Shown one piece after another: positions 1-39,496 of a DNA stretch of 64,000 bases (position 1 is the first letter of the stretch; every line of letters begins with the position of its first letter). The notes beneath the pieces are model-generated. The model made no database searches. It saw nothing but the letters and a program-made list of their open reading frames with translations, and was not told the origin of the DNA. The DNA comes from Promethearchaeota archaeon (GTDB lineage Archaea > Asgardarchaeota > Lokiarchaeia > Sigyniarchaeales > SOKP01). Both the position numbers and the translations under genes were made by a program. The stretch spans positions 251,957 through 315,956 of the forward strand of contig JAEOTA010000004.1 in the NCBI GenBank assembly GCA_016840085.1, in the 5' to 3' direction.

Positions 1-412
1 GAATTCTCGCTTTATCTACAAGTCCAACTGATGCTAGAATTGAACTAGCATACTCATCAGTTCCAATCTCTTTCGAACTCTTTCTACCTCTTTTTGAAAG
101 GCTTGGAACAATAATATTATCAAGTAAATTTAAAAATTTAAATGATCTAACTAATTGAAATGTTCGAGCAATCCCTAGATTCACTATTTTATAAGGGCGC
201 ATTCTAGTAATATCAATTCCGTCAAAATAAATTGTACCTGAATTAGTTTTCTCGAATCCTGATATTAAATTAAATACAGTAGTTTTACCTGCTCCATTTG
301 GTCCAATCAAGCCAATAAACTCTCCTCGCTTGATTTCAAAACTGAAATCATTTACAGCTGTTAAACCACCAAATTTTTTTGTTAAATTTTTAACCTCTAG
401 AATAATTCCCAT
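1..412 (-). CDS. livG: Branched-chain amino acid ABC transporter ATP-binding protein (runs off the window edge, 3' part missing)
   Basis: Hand translation from ATG at 412: MGIILEVKNLTKKFGGLTAVNDFSF...GPNGAGKTT...GIARTFQ; follows livM in the operon. Confidence 0.9.
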   Translation of the reverse strand, partial: MGIILEVKNLTKKFGGLTAVNDFSFEIKRGEFIGLIGPNGAGKTTVFNLISGFEKTNSGTIYFDGIDITRMRPYKIVNLGIARTFQLVRSFKFLNLLDNIIVPSLSKRGRKSSKEIGTDEYASSILASVGLVDKARI

Positions 413-453
413 TATTAATCACATTTAAATTTTTATTCCATTTAACCTATATC

Positions 454-1506
454 TTATCTACCCATTAAGACATCCCAGAAATCTTTCAGATGTTCTAAAA
501 TAGGTCTTAAAATCCCATGTTCAGCAAATCTAACAACAGTAATTAAAATTATGGCGAATATTGCAAATTTCCATAAGCCAACATCAAATGCAAAGGCGCC
601 AATCTCAACCACACCAATCTCTATTAGAATATATTCAAAAAAAATGAAGAAGAATGATCCTAATGCAGCCCCAATAATAGTAGTTAATCCTCCTAAAGAT
701 GCCATAAGAATAGCAAAAAATGAAATGACAAGTCCAAAATTTCCTGAGGGGTTTACTGAAGTAGTAGATAGGGCATAATAAGCTCCTGCTAATCCAGCAA
801 TTAACGCACTTATCATAAAAGCATAAATTTTATATCGTGTTGTATTGATTCCTGAAGCATCTGCTCCCGTTTCATCATCACGAATAGATTTAAAAATGGT
901 TCCTAATTTAGATTTACTAATTTGAATTAAAACTATAAAAATAACTATTGCTGATATGAATACAATTAGATATTCTACTATAGGATTTTCAGATAAGGAT
1001 GGTAAACCCGAAATTCCTTCAGAACCAAAAAATATATGTGAAAGCGATCCTAATAAAAAGAGTTTTAATAAAATTAAGCTGAATACGAGAGTTCCTAGTG
1101 CTAGATATGGACCTTTTAATCTTAAGCATGGAATCCCAATTAGTAATCCAAAAAATACTGCTCCTAAAGAACCAAGAATAATTGATAACCAAATAGGAAA
1201 ATTTTGATAATCAATTAGGTAAGCGCAAAGATAACCAGATATTCCAAAGAAAATTGCATGTCCAAAACTAATTTGTCCTGAAATCCCTGTAAGTAAATCC
1301 CAACTTGCTGCGAAAATTGCAAATATCAATGCTAATGTAAAATGGGGTAAGAAGAAATTTATGAAACTCTGATCAGTAGATAGGAATGGTAGAACAGTAA
1401 GAATAGCTAAACAAACTACAGTTAATCCTCCAGAAAAAGTCGTTACCCAAGATTTTAAATAACCTGGTAAATCACGCATCTTTTCTTTTATTTTATACCT
1501 TGTCAT
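454..1506 (-). CDS. livM: Branched-chain amino acid ABC permease
   Basis: GQISFGHAIFFG, RLKGPYLAL, SIRDDETGA motifs. Confidence 0.9.
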   Translation of the reverse strand: MTRYKIKEKMRDLPGYLKSWVTTFSGGLTVVCLAILTVLPFLSTDQSFINFFLPHFTLALIFAIFAASWDLLTGISGQISFGHAIFFGISGYLCAYLIDYQNFPIWLSIILGSLGAVFFGLLIGIPCLRLKGPYLALGTLVFSLILLKLFLLGSLSHIFFGSEGISGLPSLSENPIVEYLIVFISAIVIFIVLIQISKSKLGTIFKSIRDDETGADASGINTTRYKIYAFMISALIAGLAGAYYALSTTSVNPSGNFGLVISFFAILMASLGGLTTIIGAALGSFFFIFFEYILIEIGVVEIGAFAFDVGLWKFAIFAIILITVVRFAEHGILRPILEHLKDFWDVLMGR

Positions 1507-1546
1507 TTTTCTATTATCTCCTCATAAGGTTTTAATTTATTAATTA

Positions 1547-2428
1547 TCACCTAAGTTCTTTCTTTCCAAATAATCCTTGAGGTCTAATTACCAACATGAT
1601 AATAATAACTATAATGGGGATTAAATGAGCCCAAGAAGGGCCATTAGGAATGTAAATACTTGTGAAGCTAGTTACAAATCCTACTATATAGGCTCCAATA
1701 ACGCTTCCAACTAGACTTCCCATCCCTCCTAAAATCACTACTGCAAATGAATTTGTTAAAAATTCCCAACCCATTGTAGGGCCATTAATAGCAGCCGCAG
1801 GTATATATAAAACTGCAGCTATACTTGCAAGGAATGCGGAGATTATAACAGTATAAAGTAGAATTCTATTGGCATTAATACCCATAAGTGTTGCAGCTTC
1901 TCTATCTTGGGAAACTGCTCTAATTGATTTACCTATTTTTGACTTATTAATGAATAGAGCAAATAATGATACAATAATTAATGACATGATAATGACGAAT
2001 AGGAATTGATTAATCATTGAGTATCCAAATATTTCTGAAGTTCCAGAAATTAGAATATAATCATTAACTGCATAAGATTCAGTACCTGAAATTATCAAAG
2101 CCAACTGCTCAAGGAAGAAGGCTAATCCAAAAGTGATTAAAACAACACCAACATGAGTATCTTGTAAGGGTTTGATTAATATTAAATAAGTAAGACCTCC
2201 AAGTATAGTGACAATAATTAAAGCAATAATTACATTAAATAATAAATAATCAGGCCAAAAATCAAGAAACCATAAAAGCAAATATCCAGTTAACATGAAA
2301 TAAGCCCCATGAGACAAATTCATAATTTTTCCTACCCCATACACTAAGGAATAACCAAGAGCTATCAACGAAAAAACAGCTCCATTTAAAGTGCCATTGA
2401 ATAAAAAATTAAGAATATCTCCATTCAT
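1547..2428 (-). CDS. livH: Branched-chain amino acid ABC permease
   Basis: ALGYSLVYG..MNLSHG, IRAVSQDREAA, RPQGLFG motifs. Confidence 0.9.
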   Translation of the reverse strand: MNGDILNFLFNGTLNGAVFSLIALGYSLVYGVGKIMNLSHGAYFMLTGYLLLWFLDFWPDYLLFNVIIALIIVTILGGLTYLILIKPLQDTHVGVVLITFGLAFFLEQLALIISGTESYAVNDYILISGTSEIFGYSMINQFLFVIIMSLIIVSLFALFINKSKIGKSIRAVSQDREAATLMGINANRILLYTVIISAFLASIAAVLYIPAAAINGPTMGWEFLTNSFAVVILGGMGSLVGSVIGAYIVGFVTSFTSIYIPNGPSWAHLIPIIVIIIMLVIRPQGLFGKKELR

Positions 2429-2569
2429 AAATATCTTCTCATTCTAAATCATTTAATATTATTATTAATATTTTATCTCATATCTTATAAAGCTGATCTT
2501 TTTACATTTTTATAAAAAGAAAATACGAGTATAAATTGAGCTTATCTTCATTTTTATCTTTTATATAAT

Positions 2570-2585
2570 AAAAAAAAAAAAAAAA
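2570..2585 (-). terminator. Possible archaeal oligo-T terminator after the binding-protein gene
   Basis: 16-nt T run on the minus strand about 30 nt after the stop of 2614..4005. Confidence 0.4.
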
Positions 2586-2613
2586 TTATAAATTGAATTT
2601 ATTAAACTGCCTT

Positions 2614-4005
2614 TTAAGACCATGCCTCATCGACCCATGGTGCAACAAGATAATCAGCTGTGTGCAACCAAGGCGCGTATGGTGTATAAATAGCAGCTGG
2701 AACTACCTTCTTAGATCCATCAGGTTGCCATTGACACCATAATGTAAATCCATAAGGATAACCCGCGACAAGATCGTGAGAATTTGGCCACCATGCTGAT
2801 TCTCCAGACACACCAATAGGACGTTCAGTATTATCTGTTGTCCAAGTCTCCATCTCAGCAATAATATCATCTGTGTCTAATGAATCAATTGCTTCAATAG
2901 CATTAGCAAGCGCATTTACAGCATCATAAGCCCCACATGCAATATAAAGCGGTTCATGTTTAAATTGTGCGATAAACGCATCCCAAAATGCAATAGATTT
3001 CTCAGTTTTATTAGTTTTATGTAATGTTTGCATGATTGTCTCATAAGCGCATGATTCTCCACTAGACTTCCAAAAAGTATCTAATTGGGACTGAACGTCA
3101 ATACCAAAGATAAGGTAATCATATTCGTTAGCAGCATATTGTTGCATCATCAAAACTCCACCTTGAGCGGAAATGACTGGAATTAAAATATCACATCCAT
3201 CCTCTTGAAATGAAGCTAAATGGGTATTCATGTCCGCAGCACTAAGAGTAATATCATATCTGATTGGGTCTAGAACTTTTGCTTTCATACCTGTAAAAAC
3301 AGGTAAGTAATCTGCACAAGCAGCCACTAAAGTATCTACCCAGGTTAAATCTTCTGCTAGAATGCCAAATGTACTGATATCTTCATTAGGATAGGTAGCA
3401 TTCATTGTTAAGATAAAACCTGCTAATGTTTGCAATATTTGCATCCCTAGTGAACTTGAATTAATAGGCATAAATCTCCAGAAATATTTGTATGTATCAT
3501 AATCGGTCATAACATTTGTACAGAAAATATCAGTAGCAGCACCAGTATCAATAAAGATAATTTCTTCATCCATGAACTCTTCCACATATGCTAATAATGC
3601 TTCCGATCTGAAACCACCTACTGCGAAATCAACTTCTTTATCGAATATAAGTCTTCTTGCAGCATCAACTCCCCTAGAGGTTACAAGATTAGGATTAGAT
3701 TCGTCTGTATCTTCTTTGGTAACACCAATGTAGTATTTTACTCCTCCAACATCAACACCACCAGCTTCATTTATGTGTTTTGCAGCAAACCATGCTCCTT
3801 CGTAATTAGCATCACCTTGAATTTCTCCTGTATCACCAGCACATCCTATTATAATTGTATTTTCTTTATCAAAACCGCTTGGAGCTCCAGGGTATTTGAA
3901 TGGTGCTTCAGGGACTGCAAGGAAATACCAAGCTCCCAAGCCGATACCAACACCAATAACGGCGATAAGTACAATAGCTATAATTCTTTTTGTTAATTTT
4001 TCCAT
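2614..4005 (-). CDS. ABC substrate-binding protein, LivJ/LivK-like, N-terminal membrane anchor
   Basis: N-terminal TM; INEAGGV, GGFRSE, AYDAV motifs; first gene of the liv cluster. Confidence 0.85.
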   Translation of the reverse strand: MEKLTKRIIAIVLIAVIGVGIGLGAWYFLAVPEAPFKYPGAPSGFDKENTIIIGCAGDTGEIQGDANYEGAWFAAKHINEAGGVDVGGVKYYIGVTKEDTDESNPNLVTSRGVDAARRLIFDKEVDFAVGGFRSEALLAYVEEFMDEEIIFIDTGAATDIFCTNVMTDYDTYKYFWRFMPINSSSLGMQILQTLAGFILTMNATYPNEDISTFGILAEDLTWVDTLVAACADYLPVFTGMKAKVLDPIRYDITLSAADMNTHLASFQEDGCDILIPVISAQGGVLMMQQYAANEYDYLIFGIDVQSQLDTFWKSSGESCAYETIMQTLHKTNKTEKSIAFWDAFIAQFKHEPLYIACGAYDAVNALANAIEAIDSLDTDDIIAEMETWTTDNTERPIGVSGESAWWPNSHDLVAGYPYGFTLWCQWQPDGSKKVVPAAIYTPYAPWLHTADYLVAPWVDEAWS

Positions 4006-4235
4006 TTTTTAGATCACTTTTTTATTTTTTTTTTAGTTTTTAGGATTAAATTTAAATTGATCACTTACTAGTTCATTTTAGCATATATTTAAAGTTTTCA
4101 ACTTTCTTTATTTATAAAATGCATATTGAAGTAAAATTATTTAAAAAATTATTAAGAATAAAAAAAAATCTTAACAGGAAAATCAAAATCCAGTAAATTT
4201 CTAAAAATCAATTAAAAATAACAAATCTTCTTAGG

Positions 4236-7200
4236 CTAAAAACTAAAAATAAGTTGTAAAACAAACAAAACTCCAAAGCTAATAAATGCGATAAAAAGAG
4301 TGATAAGAGTGTAAAATCTCCATTTAATAGAAAGTTTTTCTCTTTCTTCTTTTCTTCCCATATATACTAAAGTAATTGTACCAATTACGGCGATTGATAT
4401 AAAAACAGTGAAAATATACCAAACAGGTGTGATATATATAAATAAAAATGCTATAACACTACCCCAACCATACGATAACCTTAATACTCTTCTTTTAAAT
4501 ATAACATCTGGATCAGTTGATTTAGCATAAGGAACAACTAGAATTAAAAATGCAAAAATCGCAATCGTCAATAAAGTCGGATGAATCGGACCTAATAAAA
4601 TACTTAGAAATAGTTCAGATAACAGAATACCAAGAAATACCGCCACAAAAGCGCTAAATGTTATCCATATAGATTTGAAATGAGTCTTTAAAAAACCAAA
4701 AACTATTTTAAACACATCATTTATCAATTGCTTGATTTTTCTGAAGAATTTAATAAGAATTTCAACAAAATTATTGAAAAGTTCACGTAATTCTTCTAAT
4801 AGAAATACAAAAGGATATATAAGCATTGTTATGAAAAGAATTGCTCCACTAAGTTCATAAGATAATGATACGTGATATAGTATTGAACTTAATAATGAGA
4901 AAAACGCTAGCCAAAAAGCAAAAGCCTTAAAAGAATGTTCTTTAAACGGTTTAACTATTATACCTAAAAACACTACAAATAATGATAGAGCTACGCTTAT
5001 ATTTAAGAAGAAATTGGTGTTTGGGACAAATCCTAAGAGTATGTGAACATCGACTGAAAGAAAAACTCCAATTGTCAAAAAGGAAATCTTTCTAAGACTT
5101 GATAATGATTTGTCTTCAAAAACACCTACATATTTATCAATACAAGTTAAAATGAAAAAGATTATACACGATAGTATTATTAGATTTAGAGCACGCAATG
5201 GATCTAAAGTAAGATAAAATAGTGGCCATATACCAAAGTCCAAGTATAAGATCATTAATAGAAAAAACCTAATTTTCTTTTTATTTGAGATTATATACTT
5301 TGAAAAATCTAATAGATTAAAAAGATAGGCTGTCTCAATTATTAAGATAAAAATTATAAGGGGTATAGATGTAAATAACAATTGAATGAATAAAGCAACA
5401 TAGAACCAAATTAAGTAAGTTGTGGTAAAGATCATTATGAATATCCACGATATAAATCTAAAGTAATTTGCTAATTTTCCTAAAAGTTTCACTAAGAATA
5501 TATCAAGTATCATTAGAACATGAACCATCAAGCTTAAACTTAAAAATACTAATTGGGGATCAATTTCTAATAAAATCAGACCTTGGAGCAAAAGGAAAAA
5601 TAGATTGAAATAAAAACATATTCCTAATACATGAGTTATATACGCTCTGTATTTAATGAGAGCTTCAGTTTTATCTGGATAAAGATGATTCAAAGCTTTA
5701 AACAAGGAATAATTTGTGTAAACTTGCATAATTATAAAAATCATGAATTCTAAACTAAGCAATACGGGATAATGTAAAATATACTGATTAATACTTAGAA
5801 GTGTAAATAATGAGATTGCAAAATAACTTATTGTATGTATGAAATTTCCATAACTTTTTTCAATCTTCTTTAGGATATGTATATCTAAAAACGTTAAAAT
5901 GAACAATATTAGTTGTGAAATGATTATACTTTCAAAAACACCTATTATTTCAGTTAATAACCCAAATATCATTAAACTAATTTCTATATACAATATCAAA
6001 ATCAATAAAGAATAGAATTTCGTTCTGAATTCTGGAAACTTTTCTTTAGTGAAAATAAAATCAATATAATTAATTGTTATAAACGAAATACATGTTTCAA
6101 TTAAAACTAACGAAAAGATGAAGAAAAAGTCTAATACATTATATATAATTAAAATTAATATCCAATTAATGGCGAGAAATCCTTGAAAACACAAAATTAG
6201 GATCAATTCAATTCGTTTTTTTACTCTTTCTTCCACTTTAATGAAAAAGTAGCTTAAAATAAATAATAAAAGAGAAGCATTTTGGGCAAATAATGAATAA
6301 TATGCTAATTGTTCTAAATTTTGAAACAATAATAATAAGCCATCAGATATTAAGGAAGCTAAGTAAAAAGATCCCCAAATAAATGTATTATAATAGAGTA
6401 TTAAACGATAAATAGAAATTTGTTGACGTGAGATATCTAAATAAGATAAAAAGTATATAGAAATAAGATTCAACACTGAAATTGTTAAAAATAATAGAAA
6501 TAAATTTAAATGAGAATGATATAAGAAAACGGATAGAGTATTACAAAATATGAACCATGATAAAACTATGAATTTGTTTCGTGTTGAATTGAATAAATAA
6601 TAGAAACTATGTCTATCGATGATGAATGTTTCGAAAAATAAACCTCCACTTAAAATTAAAACAAATAGATAAATTGATATGACACGATTTAAATCTATAA
6701 AAATTAAATAAAGTAAAAAGTTAAGACTTAAACCAATGGGAATAATTAGATATAGTATTAAGGAAATCTTATTAACATAGAGAAGTGGGTCTTGTACTTT
6801 AAATTCGATTTCAGATTTGATTATAAATCTTAAACATAATAAGAAGAGAATAGACCAAATTATAAGAAAATCCGTAATTTGATAAATTACTAATATTTGG
6901 GTGAATAAAAATTGCCTTAAAATAATTGGTAAGATAATCCCAATGAATAAAGAGAGGAGTAAAGAATTAAGGATATAGCATGTAAAATTAAGCCATTTTA
7001 TCTGATTTTTATCTTCATATAATTTCATAATACTATTTTTAATTTCGGCTTGCTCCTCTTTCACTAAATTTTTAAAAAGATTAGTCAAAATTTGGAAACA
7101 TGTTAAATACAAAAGAGCCCATGTTAGATACCAATAAGGTCTAATTACTTCAAGAATTAAAAGTAGTTCTAAAATAGGTAATGTAATAGGAATTGGAATT

Positions 7201-10200
7201 AAGAACCAGAGAACATATCGATATTCCGTTATTAAGAAATAGATAAAGAAAATGAAGACAATTGAGAAAATTGTAATAAAAATTCCAATTGAAACTTTAA
7301 AAAGAGTTAAGAAGAGTAATGATATTGAAGATGAGGCTCCAATGGTAACAATTAAATAAGGAATTACTTTATTAATTGGAATGTTCATCTTGAAATGATT
7401 AAAAACAAAAAAGGAAGTACCAAAGACGGTTAATGCAAGAAAAAAGGAAAATAATAAAAATCCCTGAAATAAACTGAATGTGTTGAAGGTTAACCAAGAA
7501 AAACCTAATATTAATAACCAAGAAAGACATAAATCTATAAGTCTTTTATGTAATTTTAAATATTTATTAGAAAAGAGACTTAAACCTACAACAATTAAGC
7601 TAATATTAATTGAAAATATTGGATTTAATATTATAGAATATAATACAAAATATACTGTTAAAAATATACCCGTTAAAATTGTGAAATAAGCTATAATTAA
7701 TATAAAACCTATTGACCTTATGTTCGGAAAAAAAGAATAAACAATTAAGCACAATCCAATTATTAATATATCTATTGAACTCGCAATTTCTAATGAAATC
7801 TTTATTGACATCAAGTAAAACTGCCAAAAAGAAGCATTTATTAATATTAATATTAACCATATTATTGAAGCAATTTTCCAATATTTAAAAATAGCGAATA
7901 CAGGGAATAATAAAACTACAGAAAATAGAATAAAAGACATATTTCTGAGTAAATGATTAGCAATAAATAGATTTTGGCTAATCCAATACAATAAAAATAG
8001 ACTTTCAGCCCATATAACAAATATAATATGAAAAAAATATTTCTTTATTTTAGTATATAATACAGGTAAGAACATTAGAGAGCATATTATTATACTGATA
8101 ATTAAAGAACCATTAAAATCATAAATTCCGAATAAATTTAACGAATTTGTAGCTATATCTATACCTGTTAGCCCTTTATATATTATGTAAAAATTTGCAA
8201 AGGGTATAATTATCCAAGCGTACCAACCTGATTTCCAAATCATCCAAGAAATCTTCCACTGATATATTCCTATAGAGATATAAAAAAGAAGAACACTTAG
8301 GTTAATAGCGATAATGATTGGAATAGGTTCTCCAATTGGAATCGATAAAGAAGAGATAATTAAGAAATATATGAATATTGGAAAAGAAAGGATAGGTGAT
8401 ATTAAATTAATAGTAAATGAGATCTTTCTGAATCTTTCAGATGATTTTTTGAAAAGAAGGACAAATCCAAATCCGGTTACACTCAGAGTTAAAGTAAAAG
8501 TAAGTATAGGATAGAAATCCAAATAAGGGGGATGATTGAAAAGTAATGAATATGATATAAAACTGATAAAATCGAATATAAACAGTAAAATGCTGGGTTT
8601 TATAAACCATTTATAATTTTCATCATTTTCACGATAAAAATGAATACCAACCAAAAGTAAAAAGATAAAAACTGAAATCGTTATGGTATAAAGAATCAAA
8701 ATATTCGTATATGAAATAAGATATACAAATGATAATACCGAGAACGATGTATATAATGAGAATTTTTCGAGAAAATTATTTTTCTTAAAATGTAATAAAA
8801 TTGAGAACAATAAAACTGAAATATAAGTTAGTAAGTATATGTTAATAGAAAAACCAATAAAGATAAGATTAAATTCAAAAATAATGTCATAAATATCAAG
8901 AAGAGCAATGATTTTTATTAATGTGATAAAACTTAGTAAATGATAAGATAAAAATCTAAATATTGGAAATAGACTTCTTTCTGAAAGAATAAGTGTATAA
9001 GATAGAATAAAAAGAAAAAGTGAAAGTATAGAGTTGAAGTAAAGCAAGCTTAAGAATAATAGTATATACAATAGATAAAATCTAAAAATTTTATACTCTG
9101 ATTCAACATCTATTGCCTTATTAAATTTTAACCAAAGATAACTCAAAAATAAAACAAGATTAACGATAATCATTGAAATTTGAATTCCGGGATTATTATT
9201 AAAGAAGGAGACTGTATTAGATAAAATATAGAATGTTTCGACATAAAAGCTTAATAATGAAACAGAAAATAAAATTACGGTTACTTTTTTCATTATTGAT
9301 TGATTAACTTCGGAAAAAAGATTCAATTTTTTGAAATAAGAGAAAGTAATGGGGGTTAAAAATGTAAAAGCTAGTATATACAAAACGATTTTTGTGAAAA
9401 TGGTATAGGAGAATATAAATATGAGAAAAAGACATACTATAATTTTAGTAAAAAGCCATGAGATAAATTCTAATCCATCTCTAAGCTTCTTAAATTCTAC
9501 TTTTATAATATATGTAAATGATTTAAGCAAGATTAAAACAAATAGAAAAAATAGTCCAAGATACCAGACTATATTATACTGTTTCAAAATAGAAGGAAAT
9601 AAATTCAGAATAGCGCTCTCATGAATTAAGAATATAATTACAAATGATAAAGAGAATATAATACCATGTAAAAGACTATCGCGTAAATATTTATGAACTT
9701 TTAATTCTTTGGAATAATTAAATAGCAGGATCAAAGTATAAATATTTATAACAAAAAATATCAAGAATGAACTGCTAATGATAAAAGGGCTAAAATAATG
9801 AAAAGAGAAAATTATAGGTAACTCTAAGATAATAAAGATTGAAATTGTTAACCAAGTAAATGTTTGAACTAATTTTAGAAAATTTATACTTCTTTCTTTT
9901 AATAAAAACTTGTTAGACAAAAAGATTAAGAATTTTAGAGTTGCAAAAAATAAAAAAAGAGATATAGTAATAATATGGACGATATGGGCGCTTAAGCCTA
10001 ATCTTTCTAATTCTAATCCAACAAAACTTGGAATTGAAATAATTAATCCTGATAGTATTAGGCTATTACCTAATATGACTTTCATAAGGAAATTCTCATT
10101 AAATAATCGTTTTTTATAAGAATATACACTTGGTAAATAAAAGAAAATTGATGCCGCAATGAAAGGTAAAAGAAACCCATAAAGAGTCCCATATAATAGG

Positions 10201-12752
10201 AGATAAATATAATAGAAAACAGTCGTTCCAGCTAAGACTACTTCAATAAAAGCTTGAGTTTTTAGAATCCTCATAGTGTATTTATCTTTCATTTGATAGT
10301 GTTTTATTAAATAGTAAGTAAAGGTTAGAATACCAAATACGATATATAGTGAATAATTCACTACTGATATGGTATCAATAGGCAATCCTAAACGAAAAAA
10401 ACGGTCTAAGCCGACAATAGTAGGGATTAATGTTATACACGCTGCTATTAAAACACAATCTATCAATAAAAGTTTACGTGAAATATTCTCATAAATTTTC
10501 TTTTTTAATAAGTAATATATTGGAAAAAATAAAATAGAGAAAAAACACATGAAAGGAATTAAAAAAACATACAAAGTGTTAAGTGTGAGAAGAAATGAAA
10601 TATAATAGGCTAATCCAGCGCTAAAACCTAATGTTATTAAATTTATTTTAACGGTCACTGATTTTGAAAACAAAATTTCATTCCTAGAGAATAGGTTAAC
10701 GAAGAAAGTCATAATTAGTAATGAAAAATAAATGGAAAATACTAATTTTAGGTACAAAATTAAGCTTACTAACATAATCGAGTAAAAGAAAAAGAAAAAC
10801 AAAGCAGTAAGCTCTATCGTCATCAAATAAGAATTTATATCTACAAATTTTTTGAATATAGATTCTTTTAATCTTTCTATTTTTAATCCAAATTTTAAGT
10901 TAATATAACTAAAAATGGATAAAAATAGTAGATCTAATGTTAAAACTATAAAATTATTTAATGAATTAATAAATATTGCCAGAAAAATATTTAAAATTAG
11001 TACCCAGAACAAATAATAACTATAGATTAAAAAATCGTTATGAGAAAATAATCCTATAAGATAATTCACAAATATGAAGAGAATGAAAATTATAGGAAAT
11101 AATATAGAGGAAACTATTAAGACTTGGAAAAAACTAAATATTTCAACAATAAAAAATGTCCTTAAATTAATTAAAATAAAAATAAGTAATTCAATCAATA
11201 AAATATTTGTAAATACACATATTCTGAAGAGTTTTGAGCGTTTTGCATAAAAGATTCTAGCGTATAAAATATAAAATGAAAACAATAAAATTATTAGAAT
11301 AATGGTTGAATGAAGTAAAATATTTGAAAATAATATGATTATTGGGTCTGATGTAAATCTAATATATTCAAAAATTAAAATGGGAAAGAAAGAGTATGTT
11401 ATTAAGGAAAAACTGATAACCGCAATTATATTTTGAAATATGATGATATCTTCTTTATGGAAATAATCAATTTTAACAAAAATTTGTAGAATTAGATATA
11501 AAGATAATAAAAAGACAATAAATTGAATATTTATAAGAAAAACAGTTGAGATTAGAGGAAGAACTCCAAATGAGATAGATATTAAAATCCCAATTGTATT
11601 AAATAAAAATACATATTTATTATACTTCTTAGGACAAAATTCTGTTTTTTGTTCATAATAAAAGGGAATATAAAGGAAGGGAAGTATCAGTAATATTAAA
11701 GTGGGATTATTTATTAAAAAACTGAATAAAACGACGAACAGAATTAAGATTCCAGATAAAATTGAACTATTTTTCTGATATTTAATATTTTCTACATTAT
11801 TTTTAGAATCATTAATTCTTTTCGAAGTCTTATATGTGTTTAATTTGTTATTATAATGAAAAAGAATGTAAAATCTGGACTTAAAATAAGCAATTATAAA
11901 TATTATAGTTAAAAAGGAGCTATTAATTAATTCTAATAAAGTATACTGAACACCTGATAGAATAGATGTAATCATTATAATAAATGGCATTTGAATTAAT
12001 AAAACGAATATTAGACTCACTACTGAAATAACGAATTTTTGCTTGAAAACAGTTAGATCTTGTAAAAATACTTTTTTATCTTTAATTTTATCTTTTATTT
12101 TACTGCGCTGGATTTTTGTATTGAAATATGTGATGAAATAAAATATTAAATTTGTTATGAGACAAAAAAGCCAAGATAGATTTGTAGAAATAGTAAATGC
12201 TAGAAATATGATATGGACGATGTAATTAATTAGAATTATAAAATTGTAAGGTTGTTTAATCATTAACCTTAGATTGATTGTATGTTTGAATTCATCCTCA
12301 TTTATGTCATAAAAACCAATTGGTTGGAAACCATAATAGTAATACACAATGTTATAAAGAGCGATAAAGCTAATTAAAGGAAGTTGCACAAATGTATACT
12401 CCACAGGGGAAATAATAATAAATATAGGAACAACTATAAAAGATAGTATAGAAATTAAAAATAAAACATGAATTCTAGCAACCAGATTGTTTTCCTTATT
12501 CACGAAAAAGGATTTATTTCTGTATTTATCAAAAGTTTTATAAAAAAACAATAACGCAAACATAAAAGTTAAAACTGAAAGAGGTAATGCCAGAAAATTT
12601 CCTGCAGGAAAGAGTCTATAAATCCAAAACCCAGTAAAGGCAGTTGCAAACGGGGCTATAATCAAATAAAAAAAAAACCACCAGAGCTTTTGAAGAAATT
12701 CTGTAGCTTTCTTAAGCTTCTCTTCAGAATTACTACTTCTGTCAGATTTCAT
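4236..12752 (-). CDS. Giant polytopic membrane protein of unknown function (2838 aa, about 85-90 hydrophobic segments)
   Basis: Uninterrupted 8.5-kb ORF in AT-rich DNA; hydrophobic ~20-aa segments alternate with short or Lys/Arg-rich loops; no soluble domain recognised. Confidence 0.85.
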   Translation of the reverse strand: MKSDRSSNSEEKLKKATEFLQKLWWFFFYLIIAPFATAFTGFWIYRLFPAGNFLALPLSVLTFMFALLFFYKTFDKYRNKSFFVNKENNLVARIHVLFLISILSFIVVPIFIIISPVEYTFVQLPLISFIALYNIVYYYYGFQPIGFYDINEDEFKHTINLRLMIKQPYNFIILINYIVHIIFLAFTISTNLSWLFCLITNLIFYFITYFNTKIQRSKIKDKIKDKKVFLQDLTVFKQKFVISVVSLIFVLLIQMPFIIMITSILSGVQYTLLELINSSFLTIIFIIAYFKSRFYILFHYNNKLNTYKTSKRINDSKNNVENIKYQKNSSILSGILILFVVLFSFLINNPTLILLILPFLYIPFYYEQKTEFCPKKYNKYVFLFNTIGILISISFGVLPLISTVFLINIQFIVFLLSLYLILQIFVKIDYFHKEDIIIFQNIIAVISFSLITYSFFPILIFEYIRFTSDPIIILFSNILLHSTIILIILLFSFYILYARIFYAKRSKLFRICVFTNILLIELLIFILINLRTFFIVEIFSFFQVLIVSSILFPIIFILFIFVNYLIGLFSHNDFLIYSYYLFWVLILNIFLAIFINSLNNFIVLTLDLLFLSIFSYINLKFGLKIERLKESIFKKFVDINSYLMTIELTALFFFFFYSIMLVSLILYLKLVFSIYFSLLIMTFFVNLFSRNEILFSKSVTVKINLITLGFSAGLAYYISFLLTLNTLYVFLIPFMCFFSILFFPIYYLLKKKIYENISRKLLLIDCVLIAACITLIPTIVGLDRFFRLGLPIDTISVVNYSLYIVFGILTFTYYLIKHYQMKDKYTMRILKTQAFIEVVLAGTTVFYYIYLLLYGTLYGFLLPFIAASIFFYLPSVYSYKKRLFNENFLMKVILGNSLILSGLIISIPSFVGLELERLGLSAHIVHIITISLFLFFATLKFLIFLSNKFLLKERSINFLKLVQTFTWLTISIFIILELPIIFSFHYFSPFIISSSFLIFFVINIYTLILLFNYSKELKVHKYLRDSLLHGIIFSLSFVIIFLIHESAILNLFPSILKQYNIVWYLGLFFLFVLILLKSFTYIIKVEFKKLRDGLEFISWLFTKIIVCLFLIFIFSYTIFTKIVLYILAFTFLTPITFSYFKKLNLFSEVNQSIMKKVTVILFSVSLLSFYVETFYILSNTVSFFNNNPGIQISMIIVNLVLFLSYLWLKFNKAIDVESEYKIFRFYLLYILLFLSLLYFNSILSLFLFILSYTLILSERSLFPIFRFLSYHLLSFITLIKIIALLDIYDIIFEFNLIFIGFSINIYLLTYISVLLFSILLHFKKNNFLEKFSLYTSFSVLSFVYLISYTNILILYTITISVFIFLLLVGIHFYRENDENYKWFIKPSILLFIFDFISFISYSLLFNHPPYLDFYPILTFTLTLSVTGFGFVLLFKKSSERFRKISFTINLISPILSFPIFIYFLIISSLSIPIGEPIPIIIAINLSVLLFYISIGIYQWKISWMIWKSGWYAWIIIPFANFYIIYKGLTGIDIATNSLNLFGIYDFNGSLIISIIICSLMFLPVLYTKIKKYFFHIIFVIWAESLFLLYWISQNLFIANHLLRNMSFILFSVVLLFPVFAIFKYWKIASIIWLILILINASFWQFYLMSIKISLEIASSIDILIIGLCLIVYSFFPNIRSIGFILIIAYFTILTGIFLTVYFVLYSIILNPIFSINISLIVVGLSLFSNKYLKLHKRLIDLCLSWLLILGFSWLTFNTFSLFQGFLLFSFFLALTVFGTSFFVFNHFKMNIPINKVIPYLIVTIGASSSISLLFLTLFKVSIGIFITIFSIVFIFFIYFLITEYRYVLWFLIPIPITLPILELLLILEVIRPYWYLTWALLYLTCFQILTNLFKNLVKEEQAEIKNSIMKLYEDKNQIKWLNFTCYILNSLLLSLFIGIILPIILRQFLFTQILVIYQITDFLIIWSILFLLCLRFIIKSEIEFKVQDPLLYVNKISLILYLIIPIGLSLNFLLYLIFIDLNRVISIYLFVLILSGGLFFETFIIDRHSFYYLFNSTRNKFIVLSWFIFCNTLSVFLYHSHLNLFLLFLTISVLNLISIYFLSYLDISRQQISIYRLILYYNTFIWGSFYLASLISDGLLLLFQNLEQLAYYSLFAQNASLLLFILSYFFIKVEERVKKRIELILILCFQGFLAINWILILIIYNVLDFFFIFSLVLIETCISFITINYIDFIFTKEKFPEFRTKFYSLLILILYIEISLMIFGLLTEIIGVFESIIISQLILFILTFLDIHILKKIEKSYGNFIHTISYFAISLFTLLSINQYILHYPVLLSLEFMIFIIMQVYTNYSLFKALNHLYPDKTEALIKYRAYITHVLGICFYFNLFFLLLQGLILLEIDPQLVFLSLSLMVHVLMILDIFLVKLLGKLANYFRFISWIFIMIFTTTYLIWFYVALFIQLLFTSIPLIIFILIIETAYLFNLLDFSKYIISNKKKIRFFLLMILYLDFGIWPLFYLTLDPLRALNLIILSCIIFFILTCIDKYVGVFEDKSLSSLRKISFLTIGVFLSVDVHILLGFVPNTNFFLNISVALSLFVVFLGIIVKPFKEHSFKAFAFWLAFFSLLSSILYHVSLSYELSGAILFITMLIYPFVFLLEELRELFNNFVEILIKFFRKIKQLINDVFKIVFGFLKTHFKSIWITFSAFVAVFLGILLSELFLSILLGPIHPTLLTIAIFAFLILVVPYAKSTDPDVIFKRRVLRLSYGWGSVIAFLFIYITPVWYIFTVFISIAVIGTITLVYMGRKEEREKLSIKWRFYTLITLFIAFISFGVLFVLQLIFSF

Positions 12753-12871: not shown

Positions 12872-14194
12872 TCATTTAAATTTAGGAAGATAATCTTTTT
12901 GTATTTGACTCATTTCATTGAACATCTCTTCTGCAATTCCAAAGCTTCCCACATTAGGATCAGTGGCTAAACACGCAATTGCAAGATCTTTAGATTTATT
13001 CAACACAGCATCTACGCATAAATCTTGTATTGAAGCTTCAATGCGGAGTAAAGCAGCAATATTTCTAGGAATCTTTCCTAATTTAACTCCATGAACACCA
13101 TTTTTGTTAACTGTTGCTGAACACTCTAAGATTAGATCCTGTGGTAAATTATCTGTAATATTATCATTAGGAATATTAACTGCAAATTCATAGGAATTTT
13201 TATCTGTAATTATTGCCTCGATTATTGGTACTGCTCTTTCTCCAGAAGTTCTCTCGAATAAAATGCCTTTACTTGGATATCTTCCTCTTTTAAGTCTTTT
13301 ATGATAGTTGAGATATTTGTAATGAACAAATTGACCCTCATTGTCTATAAAGTTTATCCAATCAATCATATCCTTGGTTTGTGTGAATTCTTCACCGAAT
13401 TGTAAGTATTCTCCAACGTGGTTATCGCCAGCATAACAAAACCATCCAAATTTTTTAAAAACTTCAAATGTTAGAGTTGAAAATTCAAATCGATGTTCAT
13501 ATCCTCTAAAATAATCAAGAGCTTGTTCATTAAAAGTAGGCATTAAATCTTTGCCTGTTAATAAATCTTCTAAACTTAATAAGAATGCGAAATGATTTAG
13601 GCCACCTACTCCCATTTTTAACTCTCTAATTGATTTTTTAAACATGTTGGGTAAATATCCAACTAAAAACGCGATTTGATGGCATAAACCAATAAATTTT
13701 AACTCTTTGACACTTCTCTTTATCGCTAGACATACTCGAGATAATGGATTGGAAAAATTAATCAAAAAGGCATTTGGGCAAAATTTTTCAGCATCTTTAA
13801 CAATTTCGACAATTGAAGGGATTATTCTCCAGGCATGAAAAGTCCCTCCAGGACCTCCGCATTCACCTAATATTTGTGTTGCCCCGTATTTTCTCGGTAT
13901 TTCATAATCTTGACGCCATAATTCCATTCTATTTCCAACTTCAATCGAATTAATAATAAAATCAGCATCTTTAAAGGCTTTAGCTCTGTTTGTTGTTCTT
14001 TCAAGATGAAGCTTATTCTTTTGTCTTTCATTTTCAATCTCTAAAAGATCATAAACCATCTCTAATTTTTTTTTATTTACATCATGAAGTACAACGGTAG
14101 AACCTTCTAACAAATCACTTAGAAAAATATCGTTAAACATTGGGGGACCGAATGATGTCGAACCAGCGCCTACTAGCACAATTTTTGGTTGCAT
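12872..14194 (-). CDS. Family 4 glycoside hydrolase (NAD-dependent alpha-galactosidase/glucosidase-like)
   Basis: KIVLVGAGS, GECGGPGG, NFSNP, GLCH, GLNHF motifs. Confidence 0.9.
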   Translation of the reverse strand: MQPKIVLVGAGSTSFGPPMFNDIFLSDLLEGSTVVLHDVNKKKLEMVYDLLEIENERQKNKLHLERTTNRAKAFKDADFIINSIEVGNRMELWRQDYEIPRKYGATQILGECGGPGGTFHAWRIIPSIVEIVKDAEKFCPNAFLINFSNPLSRVCLAIKRSVKELKFIGLCHQIAFLVGYLPNMFKKSIRELKMGVGGLNHFAFLLSLEDLLTGKDLMPTFNEQALDYFRGYEHRFEFSTLTFEVFKKFGWFCYAGDNHVGEYLQFGEEFTQTKDMIDWINFIDNEGQFVHYKYLNYHKRLKRGRYPSKGILFERTSGERAVPIIEAIITDKNSYEFAVNIPNDNITDNLPQDLILECSATVNKNGVHGVKLGKIPRNIAALLRIEASIQDLCVDAVLNKSKDLAIACLATDPNVGSFGIAEEMFNEMSQIQKDYLPKFK

Positions 14195-14530
14195 GGTTTC
14201 AAATTATAAGCTTATAGGATTGAATTATTTATAATATATTTAAAAAATTGATTGATTTAAAGAGTTTTTAAAATCAAGGTTAACAAAATAAGCAAAATTT
14301 TATAATTTTTTGAATTATGGGAAAAAATTAATTTCAGAAATAGCTTATTTCGAACTTTAAATTAGAGATTAAACAATCTATAAAATCTCTTTTTTCTACA
14401 TTTTTGATTAAGTAAAAAAGATTATCACATTACTTAATTGTAAAAAATCTAATATTTAGATATAATGGGAAATCAATGGGTAAAATTTAAATAGATCTTT
14501 TCACATTTACTTATTAATGAGTTTTTCACA

Positions 14531-14662
14531 TAATACTATGGATGTTTGGTGTAAATTACCTTTACCGACATTTAAGGTAATTATCCGTAGTATTATTAAG
14601 AGAGAATAAATCAAATTTCTTGACCTCTTTCTGATAATTTTTACTGATTTGTTCTCTTTTAA
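14531..14662 (+). ncRNA. Candidate structured RNA or 5' leader with two abutting long hairpins
   Basis: Stems 14531-43/14583-95 (13 bp), 14554-62/14574-82 (9 bp) and 14596-613/14645-62 (18 bp); all three non-Watson-Crick pairs are G-U on the + strand; TATA-like TTTAAATA at 14487-14494. Confidence 0.55.
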
Positions 14663-14752
14663 CACTACATATCAATAATAATTATTCGAAATTGGTCAAA
14701 ATTAGCATTTAGGACCTCTAGTGAAAAATTTAATTAAAAAAGGAGGTGAAAA

Positions 14753-14935
14753 ATGCTGGAAAAAGAATCAGATAAAATGGATCTGATATTGGATTATTAT
14801 AAAGATTGGGATTCTTATAAAACTCCAGTTATGATGATGCTTGATAACTCAAAAGAATTTAATGAAAATATAGAAAATGTTGATGAGAGAAGACAGGGAT
14901 ATCTTTGGAGTAAATATAGGAAATTTTCCAAATAA
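14753..14935 (+). CDS. Small hypothetical protein (60 aa)
   Basis: Strong SD AAGGAGGTGA just before the ATG; GGAA-actg-TTCC hairpin and T tracts after the stop. Confidence 0.6.
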   Translation: MLEKESDKMDLILDYYKDWDSYKTPVMMMLDNSKEFNENIENVDERRQGYLWSKYRKFSK

Positions 14936-14997
14936 TAGGAAACTGTTCCAATCTTTTAAATTTTATTAAAATTTTTTTTAAATTAATTTATTTTCCT

Positions 14998-16179
14998 TTA
15001 ATCAAGAATCAACTTTATCCTTTCTAAAGCTTCTTTAATTTTTTCTTCAGGTTGAGTTAAAGCAAATCTCACATAACCTTCTCCATATTGACCAAAACCG
15101 GTCCCAGGTGTAACAACTACTCCTACTTCTATCAATTTTTTTACGAAATTCATGCTACTCTTTTCAGAAAACTTTTTAGGAATTTGTGTCCATACATAAA
15201 AGGTTGCCTGTGGTTTTTCTGTTTTCCATCCCATATCATTTAATCTTTTTATTAAAATATCCATCCTTTTTTCATACACTCTCACCGTTTTTTTTACTAT
15301 TTCAGGTTTCTCCTCAGATTTATATTCACTTAAACCTTTCATTACTGCTTTCTGTATGAATTTTGGACTTCCAGAGTCAATTTGAGACTTAACTTTCCTT
15401 ACTCCTTGTATTATTTCTTTATTACCTGCTATCCACCCACATCGAAAACCAGTCATATTAAACATTTTAGAGGCACTATTAATTTCTACATGATTTTGAT
15501 CTACTTGTAATATTGTCGGCGCAATATACTCATCAAACGTAAATTCTGAATATGGATTATCATAAACAATAAAAAAGTTATAGTCTTCAGCATAATCAGC
15601 TACCTTTTTTAAAAATTCCTTTGGGGCGATCGCGCCAGTAGGATTATTAGGATAATTTAGATACATCATTTTTGCTTTTTTAAGAATTTTAGTGTTAATT
15701 GCTTCTAAGTCTGGAAGAAATTTATTTTCTTTTATTAAAGGCATCGGATAGGGTTCAGCATCGCATAGTTTTGTTGCCCCATTTTCATACACAGGATATC
15801 CCGGATTAGGACAAAGAACTATATCTCCTGGATTTATAAAAGCTCTCGCAATATTAGCTACGCCTTCTTTTCCACCAATTACGTTTGTAATCTCATCTTT
15901 AAGGTCCAATTCTACATTAAATCTTACCTTATACCATTTTGCAACAACCTCTCTAAATTCTTCTTCACCCATACTTGCAGGATAATTATGGTTTTCTGGG
16001 ATTCTAACTTCTTCAACTAATGCATTAATAATCAAGTCTGGAGTTGCTAAATCAGGATCTCCTATTCCTAGTGAAATAAAATCCATGCCTTTTTTCTTCT
16101 TTTCTGCTATTAGCTGTTCAATCTCTACAAAAATATATTTTGGAATTCTTTTTACCCTCTCAGCGTAATCTACTTTAAT
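14998..16179 (-). CDS. PLP-dependent class I/II aminotransferase (LL-diaminopimelate aminotransferase-like), probable ATT start
   Basis: LGIGDPD, NYPNNPTG, DNPY, SASKMFNMTGFRCG, GEGYVRF; the frame extends 31 codons above the ORF-track ATG (IKVDYAERVKRIPKYIFVEI...) to an ATT preceded by AGGTG. Confidence 0.85.
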   Translation of the reverse strand: MKVDYAERVKRIPKYIFVEIEQLIAEKKKKGMDFISLGIGDPDLATPDLIINALVEEVRIPENHNYPASMGEEEFREVVAKWYKVRFNVELDLKDEITNVIGGKEGVANIARAFINPGDIVLCPNPGYPVYENGATKLCDAEPYPMPLIKENKFLPDLEAINTKILKKAKMMYLNYPNNPTGAIAPKEFLKKVADYAEDYNFFIVYDNPYSEFTFDEYIAPTILQVDQNHVEINSASKMFNMTGFRCGWIAGNKEIIQGVRKVKSQIDSGSPKFIQKAVMKGLSEYKSEEKPEIVKKTVRVYEKRMDILIKRLNDMGWKTEKPQATFYVWTQIPKKFSEKSSMNFVKKLIEVGVVVTPGTGFGQYGEGYVRFALTQPEEKIKEALERIKLILD

Positions 16180-16336
16180 TTAAAACACCTATTTTTAAGA
16201 ATTAGAGTGAAAGTACGTGTAGTCTATCATCTATATAATGATAAAAATTTTTCGAAATAGAATCTATTTTAATAAGAATTTATTAGAAAAATTGTACTAG
16301 AAAAAAAGCTAGAATATTTATTTTTTAAGATAATTA

Positions 16337-17644
16337 CTACTTTTTTTCTATTGGATTTATTTCATATTCATTCGGATCCATTGTTAGAAATGGTATGAAA
16401 TCGATATTTATTAGTATTGCCATGAATAAGAAAATTATAGCATAAATTGCAAATGTGGGTAATCCAACTAAGCTTGCGAATAGTATACTCGTTAGTTCTA
16501 ATCCAATTGTGGCTCCTAAATTAGTAAATGAGTTACACGTCGCATAATAAGTTGCATCATAATCCGGATATAATTGAGATTCCTGAGCAATTACAGCAGA
16601 AAAGGCAGAATTTTTCCAACCCGCAGCCCCCCCTAAAAGAAATGCAAAAAACATTAATATTGACCAAATCACTGGTATTAAAAATAGTAAGAAGGAGATC
16701 GTTGTTATTAACAATGAGATATAAACACTACGCTTCCTTGACTGTAAATCAGCCATTCTCCCTCCAAGTAAAGCTCCAGTAATAACTCCTAATCCAATAA
16801 TGAAAGCAGATAATGCATTAGGTGCATATAAATCTTCTCTTGTTGGATCACCAATTAAATCAATACTAGCGCCAGTAGAGCCAACCAAACCCCATTGAAT
16901 AAGAATAAAAAGAGGGATAAATAAAAATATTACTCCATCCACTATTGAATTAAATAAAGAGAATATATATACTTTCCAATTCTTAGCTTTACCAAAAATT
17001 ACTATAAGATTATCAATTATATTTATTTCTACTGATTTCTTAAGCTCTTTAACGATAATTATTAAAAACGAGAATATAATCATCGCTATCCCTAAACCTA
17101 TAAAAGCATATTCTATAATTCCTCCCGCTAATAAAATAAAAACAACTAATAAAGGACCACCTGCAATTATACCCACAGATCTAAATCCCCAACATACGCC
17201 TTGCACACGGCCTAGCCTTTCTTTTGGATATAAATCTAAAATTAGCCCATCTATAGCGGTATCTGCCATAGCTACTCCTATAACAATAAACACGCCTAGT
17301 ACCAATACCATTGTCATAGCATTTGATGGTGTTAAAATAAATGGAAAAAATACCCATAGTAGCCCTGATATAATACTAGGACCTATAATCCAAGGCTTTC
17401 TCCTTCCTATATTTTTAAAACCAAACTTGTCCGATAACATACCATAAATGAACTTTACTCCAAACGGCAGAAGAACCAATGACATTATAGAGGCAATCTC
17501 TCCCGCATCTACAGTTCCAATTAATTGTAGTAAATAGATAGGAATAATTGTTGTAAAATTACTCTGCACAATTCCTTGAGTAAAATAATTTAAAGAGAAT
17601 ACCCCAATGTATCTTTTTTTCAATTCGAGTTTTTCTTGTTCCAT
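16337..17644 (-). CDS. MFS transporter (AmpG/BT1-like)
   Basis: About 12 TM; PFGVKFIYGMLSDK, GRRKPWI, DTAIDGL, GGRMAD motifs. Confidence 0.85.
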   Translation of the reverse strand: MEQEKLELKKRYIGVFSLNYFTQGIVQSNFTTIIPIYLLQLIGTVDAGEIASIMSLVLLPFGVKFIYGMLSDKFGFKNIGRRKPWIIGPSIISGLLWVFFPFILTPSNAMTMVLVLGVFIVIGVAMADTAIDGLILDLYPKERLGRVQGVCWGFRSVGIIAGGPLLVVFILLAGGIIEYAFIGLGIAMIIFSFLIIIVKELKKSVEINIIDNLIVIFGKAKNWKVYIFSLFNSIVDGVIFLFIPLFILIQWGLVGSTGASIDLIGDPTREDLYAPNALSAFIIGLGVITGALLGGRMADLQSRKRSVYISLLITTISFLLFLIPVIWSILMFFAFLLGGAAGWKNSAFSAVIAQESQLYPDYDATYYATCNSFTNLGATIGLELTSILFASLVGLPTFAIYAIIFLFMAILINIDFIPFLTMDPNEYEINPIEKK

Positions 17645-38500: not shown

Positions 38501-39496
38501 CTTGTGAAAGGAACCCCATATCATATATGTACGCATAAGATGGGAATCTTTGCTTATGTAGTTGGTTTTTTCCGTGATATCAGAGTAAAATATTTTAAAC
38601 CAAAATCAAGTGATAAAACGTTAACAGACAAACAACGTAGTTATTATCTGACCATACAACAAGCGTTAAAAGTCTTTATTAATGGCAGTTATGGAGTTTT
38701 TGGGTCTCAGAATTTCCCCTTGTTTTGTTTACCAGTTGCAGAAAGTACTACAGGTATAGGTCAATATTCAATAAAGCAAACAATTAAAAAAGCCGAAACC
38801 CTTGGAATAAGAGTTTTATACGGAGATACAGATTCTATTTTTCTTTTACATCCTAATAAAGAACAAATGAAGGAAATATCCAATTGGAGTAAAGAAGAGT
38901 TAGATCTTGATTTAGAAGAAGAAAAAACATATCAATTTTTAGCACTTTCTGAACGAAAAAAGAATTACGTTGGAATCTATAAGGATACTCAATATACCGA
39001 TATTAAAGGTTTAGTAGCCAAAAAGAAAAACACACCTGAATTTATCAAAAAAATTTTCAGTGAAATGATTAAAATATTGAAGCAAATTAAAAATAATGAA
39101 GATTTTTTGAAAGCAAAGGATCAAATTATAGGAATTGTAAGAGAGAATTTAAAGAAAATTGGTAAACCAGATACGTTTACCATAGAGGATTATGCTATAA
39201 ATATAGGTTTACAAAAAGATCTGAAGAATTACACTAAAGTTATTCCTCAACATGTTCGAGCTGCAATAGAATTAAGAGATACTACTGGAAAAGAATATCA
39301 AAAAGGTGAAACAATTAGTTTTATAAAGAGTAAAGGGGCAACCGGAGCAAAAGCAATTGAATTAGCCAAACTTCAAGATATAGATACTAAAAAATATAAA
39401 GAACTTTTAAAATCTGCTTTAGAACAGGTTTTAGATGCTTTAGGTATTACATTTGAAGAAATTCGAGGTATAAAAAAGATGGATGCTTTCTTTTAA
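35552..39496 (+). CDS. polB: Family B DNA polymerase (PolB1 type) containing an intein
   Basis: Exonuclease DIE, FNGDNFD and YNLKD; DFA/SLYPSII, KVFINGSYG, YGDTDS, KKNY; N-domain LLLDVDYDG..KAYCKFYD resembles crenarchaeal PolB1. Confidence 0.95.
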   Translation: MVFMPPPKKKKLDDKEQTSLFSFVDEKKQKKDKSLERSKKEEVKKDKEEKLKIKPIVIKEEKITNAPLTEKSEIPQVSFFKEKDEPFGLKEGNVTLEKVLREGVTSKYIRYLIEKGEVVKDLNRGLLLDVDYDGGQNKAYCKFYDLDTDDIKMWIDNTDHEPYCLSKEPISELEKLNLTNYEGFKRFEKIKRFDLLRDKEIEITKIYGKTPTNIGGSGINIRNILGENDKKAWEADIRYHLNYIFDRQLIPGLIYTIKNGEIIEVNFEEIDVNSKKMTEELQILFQDEAPEIQEFSEKFLDIFITPIPDAKRMAMDIEVMVGERDYKIPDPRLANQEVISVSFVATDGLKLVYMLEREGYTFETLHKKFPSDAKVVLFKSEKDLLIETFRLIWEYPIIITFNGDNFDLNYLFHRAEKLKIDRDLNPIHVKRGFGILSKAECDLRKGIHIDVFNLFFNRSISGYAFGGAYESASLNAISAALLGEEKFQHEEIIHEMEYDILSWYNLKDSILTLELTKFNNSLVWNLIILLCRITKMPIHDMVRRQISTWIQNIFYFEHRRKNALIPRRSEIREEKPGGILSSKSDDEKFLGAYVVPPVPGIHFDVVVMDFACFSDDTEILTNNGWFTYSELKNHKENQIEVATVNPKNNNIEYNAVNEVFEYDYKEKMINFKQQGIDILVTPNHRMVYNKRTNEREKTTFEKKIRIKLANELKEDYLYAIPYTGNWKGENNLIQIGNKNYNPSDFLPFLGWFITDGGISGRSVNIYQSKEQNFDHIRNSIEKLGFQYKEYERNREGKKLEKIFSIHNVSFRDDLKNWFKKNLGIYKRNRIPPEIFKLKRKDLLLLFKSMILGDSRWSDDICYSFDSLSEDLANDFQILCLKIGYGCNIKKENIITEFDNKKYERTNYRCLISYERKNIIRKHHTNFAEYRGKIWCVSVNNGTVIVRRNGKPFVSGNSLYPSIIKEYNLSYETVLCPHKDDEDNLVKGTPYHICTHKMGIFAYVVGFFRDIRVKYFKPKSSDKTLTDKQRSYYLTIQQALKVFINGSYGVFGSQNFPLFCLPVAESTTGIGQYSIKQTIKKAETLGIRVLYGDTDSIFLLHPNKEQMKEISNWSKEELDLDLEEEKTYQFLALSERKKNYVGIYKDTQYTDIKGLVAKKKNTPEFIKKIFSEMIKILKQIKNNEDFLKAKDQIIGIVRENLKKIGKPDTFTIEDYAINIGLQKDLKNYTKVIPQHVRAAIELRDTTGKEYQKGETISFIKSKGATGAKAIELAKLQDIDTKKYKELLKSALEQVLDALGITFEEIRGIKKMDAFF
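37385..38419 (+). mobile_element. Intein (345 aa) with LAGLIDADG homing endonuclease in polymerase motif A
   Basis: Splits DFA|SLYPSII; starts CFSDDTEILT; block B VTPNHR; LGWFITDG and KSMILGD motifs; ends VSGN followed by Ser+1. Confidence 0.93.

Follow-up and report, generated by a model that had tools for sequence, protein, structure and literature searches.

Several described systems come close to parts of the protein considered here. Among characterised proteins, we know of none more polytopic than Piezo, with its 38 transmembrane (TM) helices. The Piezo chain of about 2500 aa carries these 38 TM helices, with nine 4-TM units in the blade and a capped pore at the C-terminus (PMC12377734). 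From Omnitrophota, giant proteins with many TM regions have been reported; they exceed 30,000 aa and are packed with enzyme, SecA and adhesion domains (bioRxiv 10.1101/2023.11.21.568195). Soluble alpha-solenoids of the TPR/HEAT type (Ski3, Ctr9, IFT-A, exportins, nucleoporins) consist of stacked hairpins and grow by tandem duplication, and the bacterial DUF2339 family (PF10101), whose function is unknown, is an all-membrane hairpin protein lacking a catalytic domain.

The gene described here lies on a 64,000-nucleotide stretch of Lokiarchaeia DNA (the window; Table 1), and its product resembles each of these systems in some respect. Like Piezo1 and Piezo2, it is a very large polytopic chain of similar length, with repeated 4-TM units in its arms and a long cytoplasmic helix near the C-terminus. 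Unlike Piezo, it belongs to a family with 89-139 predicted TM helices, it has no extracellular cap, and its conserved region is central and flanked by two arms; we therefore read the likeness as an analogy only. It shares many TM regions with the Omnitrophota giants but is made of membrane helices only, and it shares helical hairpins that multiply by tandem duplication with the soluble solenoids, while every one of its helices is hydrophobic and the positive-inside rule is obeyed. DUF2339, on the other hand, is much shorter (a 659-position model). The family is real and undescribed, and its architecture is outside the characterised kinds found; the literature search returned no paper on it or its locus tags.

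Table 1. Features of the giant gene and its immediate neighbours, in window positions
Feature	Residues and helices	Positions	Strand	Basis
Giant membrane-protein gene, whole; intact, ATG-initiated, single-copy	2838 aa, 335 kDa; 89 predicted TM helices, N-in/C-out	4236..12752	-	ORF, hydropathy, DP, AlphaFold2
N-module, conserved cytoplasmic loops	1-320; TM1-8	11793..12752	-	conservation; separate ORF in some lineages
N-arm, low conservation	321-1300; ~TM9-39	8853..11792	-	conservation profile
Duplication hot zone 1, in N-arm	~490-975	9828..11285	-	repeat/duplication mapping
Conserved core	1301-1860; TM40-59	7173..8852	-	conservation, duplication mapping
Order-wide near-invariant patch	1497-1676; TM47-52	7725..8264	-	family alignment
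C-arm	1861-2650; ~TM60-84	4803..7172	-	repeat/duplication mapping
C-cap, starting with the amphipathic helix	2651-2838; TM85-89	4236..4802	-	conservation
Cytoplasmic amphipathic helix, strongest hydrophobic moment of the protein	~2653-2690	4683..4796	-	AlphaFold2 model, hydrophobic moment
Branched-chain amino acid type ABC operon, directly downstream		2-4005	-	
GH4 alpha-galactosidase-like gene, PLP aminotransferase (LL-DAP type best hit) and MFS transporter, upstream		12872-17644	-	

The gene, its predicted topology and its distribution

In regard to the authenticity of the gene, its GC content of only about 24% and the 7.6% contamination of the host genome bin could point to an assembly artefact or to a chance open frame in AT-rich DNA. 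Such an explanation is scarcely credible. At the base composition of the gene, the chance of an open frame of this length is about 1e-93. Logan contigs from two runs, which may be those of the source study, each cover the gene in one piece with 0 differences, and collinear full-length homologues are encoded by many unrelated genomes, some of them in a single contig. The dN/dS ratio is 0.21 against the closest relative (0.17 for the core alone) and 0.20-0.22 in five other homologue pairs, which places the gene under purifying selection at about 0.2. An assembly chimera, a possibility raised in the first-pass annotation, is thereby excluded. The protein is 46.5% L+I+F, with a GRAVY of 1.11, and in the 4.68 Mb host genome its ORF is by far the richest in helices, with 81 hydrophobic windows against 18 for the runner-up. 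The longest ORF of that genome is a different one (5925 aa, about 13 hydrophobic segments; contig C30 of genome G000, 63233-81010, minus strand, beyond the window), unrelated to the giant protein in tblastn. No promoter or terminator signal above chance was found at the 3' end of the giant gene. The published value for the P. syntrophicum homologue is low, 152 RPKM, the third lowest among 116 rows considered of a table in which all values lie at 109-375, and it says little about expression.

The first-pass annotation had described, by eye, about 85-90 TM helices (89 counted), arranged as hairpins with one short and one Lys/Arg-rich loop, and no enzymatic or soluble domain, a description that is borne out here. 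A single-sequence topology DP (hydropathy plus the positive-inside rule) gave 89 TM helices at both thresholds tried, with the C-terminus outside. Two AlphaFold2 models contain 40 helices in residues 700-1890 (pLDDT 81.9, pTM 0.54) and 29 in residues 1891-2838 (pLDDT 83.7, pTM 0.50), and these, together with 20 helices recognised from hydropathy alone in residues 1-700, again amount to 89; plain hydropathy windows gave 72-87 hydrophobic segments. The predicted fold is all-helical, and the predicted topology consists of 44 hairpins plus one helix, with the N-terminus inside and the C-terminus outside. In the 89-helix assignment, basic inside loops alternate strictly with outside loops along the chain: the 45 inside loops hold on average 3.9 K/R (minimum 1.2) in 18 aa, and the 44 outside loops 0.2 K/R (maximum 1.05) in 7 aa, the K/R values being family averages. 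The longest loop is about 41 aa, which leaves no place for a soluble domain, and the longest outside loop is about 16-20 aa. A period of 63 aa, with harmonics, is present in both hydropathy and K/R. All 92 near-full-length homologues are likewise predicted as N-in/C-out, with odd TM counts of 77-115.

Comparison with known families returned no match along the length of the protein. Pfam and NCBIfam scans of the whole protein, its segments, 84 core sequences and long homologues gave nothing relevant, and PDB sequence searches with the protein and with the core profile were empty. Foldseek with both AlphaFold2 models gave no significant match, in searches where a single-domain match may be missed owing to the length of the models; the top rows are soluble TPR/HEAT-type alpha-solenoids, all non-significant (E at least 0.008, TM-score about 0.1, rmsd about 30 Å). 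The VIA fold search returned small bundles only, at background Z. Piezo Pfam models matched neither the whole protein nor its four segments, and PF12166 and PF24871 had no hits at E up to 1. TM89 is preceded by an inside loop that is basic and 18 aa long, and with outside loops averaging 7 aa a Piezo-type cap is absent; 4-TM duplications are present, with no significant fold row in the searches with the long models. As for soluble solenoids, the 63-aa hairpin period and the expansion of the arms by duplication agree with their architecture, while for superhelical stacking the Foldseek rows, weak and non-significant, give a hint only. TPR, HEAT and ARM repeat HMMs of Pfam and NCBIfam did not match, and the GRAVY value is not that of amphipathic soluble helices. 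DUF2339 showed a weak ESM feature match (rank 17, score 0.84, 13% of cluster members), but its HMM matched 0 of 3 gene-carrying genomes at E up to 1, while control genomes did match.

Full-length homologues are present in Asgard genomes, within narrow limits. With the core profile, the gene was found in 95 of 116 genomes (all at least 85% complete) of the three Lokiarchaeia families of the host's order, almost always as a single copy, and in none of 152 genomes from 25 other Asgard families. It is near-core in one Asgard order, and as searches of other Asgard lineages gave no copy, its relevance to eukaryote origins is doubtful. An exhaustive hmmsearch of the core profile against 1.84 billion representatives, in which remote homology between hydrophobic helices can be missed, matched 53 clusters; among those inspected that have a named source, all bear Asgard labels except for one Nanopelagicaceae bin. 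Nearly all named homologues come from Promethearchaeota/Lokiarchaeia. A few NCBI records carry the labels Thor-, Hod-, Hermod- or Odinarchaeota, and one Nanopelagicaceae; as their similarity to the query is that of genus- or family-level relatives, they probably come from mislabelled bins. Within the host's family, several genomes that are nearly complete, including three of genus g16 (92-99% complete), yielded no copy of the gene, not even when a deeper alignment was used, and an essential role in cell shape is therefore unlikely there.

Four homologues come from cultured strains: DSAG12_00898 of P. syntrophicum (3940 aa, about 115-121 TM by DP), the paralogues NEF87_002906 (3146 aa, about 85-91) and NEF87_003094 (4905 aa, about 133-139) of L. 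ossiferum, and K9W44_04180 of Ca. H. repetitus (4296 aa, about 119-129). They match the core profile at E 1e-59 to 1e-70, with identical invariant residues and similar termini, while their arms are longer than those of the query and their gene neighbours differ. All are annotated as hypothetical, and with locus tags available from three cultured strains the family can be tested now. If made as one chain, the protein would hold 89 TM helices here and about 135 in L. ossiferum, more than twice the 38 of Piezo, and such a number raises questions on insertion, folding and the control of topology.

Modular plan and changes in length

Conservation along the giant protein peaks at residues 1-320, 1300-1860 and in the last 190, and the regions between these peaks form the two arms. 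Positions conserved at 90% or more are denser in the inside loops (69 of 823, 8.4%) than in the outside loops (5 of 328, 1.5%). In the C-cap, a conserved cytoplasmic motif, E-x(4,5)-SIKWRFY, precedes the last helix. The profiles of the N-module and the C-terminal region show no homology to each other.

Repeats were detected by profile self-comparison and are limited, as far as sequence can reveal them, to 4-TM and 8-TM units in the arms; a single repeat unit along the whole chain was not detectable. Hot zone 1 contains a 130-aa (4-TM) tandem repeat (716-824 vs 847-954, 35% identity, E 1e-11), while hot zone 2 (about 1986-2657) falls in the C-arm, with old repeats of 122 and 244 aa. All 40 records of recent duplication (45% identity or more) map to residues ~490-975 or ~1986-2657, and thus to the arms only; none was seen in the core of any homologue. 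The duplications span 2-12 hairpins, and their offsets lie near whole hairpin numbers, mostly 2, 3 or 4, with a mean deviation of 0.10 vs 0.25 for random; relatives share events. Close relatives differ in length, with values of about 2700 to 3750 aa, at a dN/dS that remains near 0.2. Judging from predicted topologies, the family changes its length by whole hairpins while orientation never flips, and it represents a natural experiment in which length varies under constant orientation. The 4905-aa paralogue of L. ossiferum (L031:3279-18005, plus strand) has about four 300-aa tandem units in its C-arm, at residues ~2780-4170, with a period longer than that of the host's family.

The N-module can also exist on its own. 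In loci L058 and L064 it is encoded by an ORF of its own, about 312 aa long, which overlaps the main gene at its start, and in four further genomes it has its own frame. The cut falls in the cytoplasmic loop after TM8, so that the split products have 8 + 81 = 89 TM helices. On a quick tree, split forms intermingle with fused ones, which may point to repeated fission or re-fusion of the module. It could be argued from this that the protein is a polyprotein, cut into smaller membrane proteins, with the 89-helix chain as no more than a transient form: as the natural fission after TM8 demonstrates, at least one module functions as a chain of its own, and a further homologue, in locus L041 (4228-12837, plus strand), is divided near residue 2065 into two ORFs of 2065 and 796 aa, 22 nt apart, which may be a second natural split or a sequence error. 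However, neither a protease domain nor a repeated cleavage motif was seen, most homologues are fused, and topology is kept through the duplications, which makes such processing improbable. Two further variants concern the N-module. In the P0111 subgroup, a zinc ribbon sits in one of its cytoplasmic loops (P0111 residues ~160-190), with an insert at the same site in P0112 and P0113; no other soluble domain was recognised in the family. In locus L061 (14476-14754, minus strand), a 92-aa ORF resembling the first two N-module helices lies upstream of an intact fused gene and is probably a partial duplication of the module.

Possible roles of the core and the arms

The gene, its conservation and the selection on it, its modular plan and its pattern of duplications are shown, and several models could account for them. 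We tentatively favour, at a probability of roughly 0.4, an intramembrane hairpin solenoid that acts as a scaffold and organises or bends the membrane from the cytoplasmic side. According to this model, the helical hairpins would form a solenoid-like ribbon within the cytoplasmic membrane, and with a spacing of about 1 nm between stacked hairpins its length would be about 45 nm; the pTM values of 0.50-0.54, with good local confidence, are compatible with an elongated chain. The conserved core and the two conserved end modules would be sites of docking or organisation that are read chiefly from the cytoplasm, and the arms would be spacers in which topology matters more than length. Short outside loops, longer basic inside loops and the C-terminal amphipathic helix could give the ribbon a wedge shape, which would bend or corral a patch of membrane. 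This ribbon shape, its partners and its shaping of the membrane are what we infer. The scaffold is supported by the hairpin period, by whole-hairpin duplications in the arms only and by the topology kept in 92 of 92 homologues, as well as by the free length at dN/dS near 0.2, the natural split after TM8 and the denser conservation of the inside loops.

The first-pass annotation had also arrived at a scaffold, membrane-shaping or mechanosensory protein and had linked it to Asgard cell protrusions. Its scaffold-like anatomy stands, given the 63-aa hairpin repeat, arms grown by duplication, no catalytic match and the weak, non-significant solenoid rows, while the case for a link with protrusions across the Asgard archaea has become weaker. 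Cultured members of the host's order are bounded by a single membrane, carry branched protrusions and lack an ordered S-layer. In the genomes searched, the gene family was not found outside three families and is patchy in the host's, and protrusions are also present in M. peptidophilum, which we take to be a member of Hodarchaeales, so a general role in them is doubtful.

The core provides a counterpoint to the scaffold model, as does the failure to detect one repeat unit along the whole chain. About 26 positions are kept across the order, and most of them fall in the near-invariant patch: six Trp (W1506, W1513, W1581, W1590, W1625, W1632), four Pro (P1517, P1563, P1617, P1676) and the polar N1520, D1532, S1549, E1583, N1594 and N1639, in addition to G1509, G1548 and F1642. 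In the predicted topology N1520 and E1583 lie mid-membrane, and the mid-membrane N1484, N1520, E1583 and N1639, conserved order-wide, cluster in TM46-51. Such a patch, with Asn and Glu in the membrane interior, looks less like part of a passive scaffold than like a site of binding, transport or catalysis, and an invariant core of this kind, overlooked in the first-pass annotation, leaves room for a transport or catalytic role. A complex prediction for a core homodimer (residues 1439-1729) scored 0.00 with an uncertain fold and provides no evidence either way; alignment depth for coevolution was Neff/L 0.025.

One such role would be that of a tension-gated channel or transporter analogous to Piezo, in which the core is the permeation path and the arms are membrane-spanning levers. 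The mid-membrane cluster would suit it, as would the long cytoplasmic amphipathic helix near the C-terminus and the growth of the arms in 4-TM units, comparable to the nine of the Piezo blade (PMC12377734). We nevertheless consider it unlikely, since there is no Piezo sequence signal, the extracellular cap is missing, the conserved part is central and not C-terminal, and arm length that varies freely within a genus would be hard to square with a tuned gate. A broader proposal, also unlikely, joins this role with the scaffold: a single-chain intramembrane solenoid of 90-140 helices, with the core as a gated pore or sensing site and length-tunable arms that bend or sense the membrane, would be a new class of membrane protein in which archaea arrived independently at the principle of the Piezo blade, and would help to shape Lokiarchaeia cells that lack an ordered S-layer.

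Alternatively, the core could be a new intramembrane enzyme or flippase, handling for example lipids, lipid-linked glycans or an envelope polymer, with the arms as a ruler or substrate track. Trp-rich patches with Glu, Asn and Asp, such as the one in the core, resemble glycan- or lipid-binding sites in general. Two homologue fragments, P0181 and P0116, are named 'O-antigen polymerase' by NCBI, a name that no model reproduced, as neither has a Pfam or NCBIfam match at E up to 10. The large outside loops employed by Wzy and GT-C enzymes are absent from the giant protein. A GH4 glycosidase usually lies directly upstream of the giant gene in the host's family; however, GH4 is multi-copy, it also occurs in genomes where the giant gene was not found, and the linkage is lost outside the family. 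Taken together, an enzyme or flippase appears quite unlikely.

It is also conceivable, though again quite unlikely, that the protein is an intramembrane chaperone or platform holding membrane proteins or complexes in a microdomain, as HEAT/TPR solenoids hold their cargo, a reading that overlaps with the scaffold. The solenoid-like plan and the scattered conserved polar residues within arm helices (E521, K1103, E2219, E2257, H2411, D2568) are consistent with it. Furthermore, in the genus of P. syntrophicum, a protein of about 300 aa with 3 TM helices and an SPFH/flotillin gene are encoded directly upstream (L034:727-2942, plus strand; L037; L038), but this adjacency is confined to that genus (3 loci), and a search of the host genome gave no Flot domain.

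The neighbourhood as a whole gives no function for the giant protein. The GH4 and aminotransferase genes each occur in 18 of 21 host-family loci examined, and the downstream ABC operon keeps the same order in 13 loci of the host genus, and in this genus only. The gaps beside the giant gene are 120 and 231 nt, and its neighbours differ in the other two families. Elsewhere in the window are a 1314-aa family B DNA polymerase with an intein carrying a LAGLIDADG-like domain (35552-39496, plus strand), a 578-aa radical SAM protein with an N-terminal HMPTM zinc ribbon (41542-43278, minus strand) and a 396-aa IS605 OrfB/TnpB with a Cas12f1-like TNB domain (49620-50810, plus strand).
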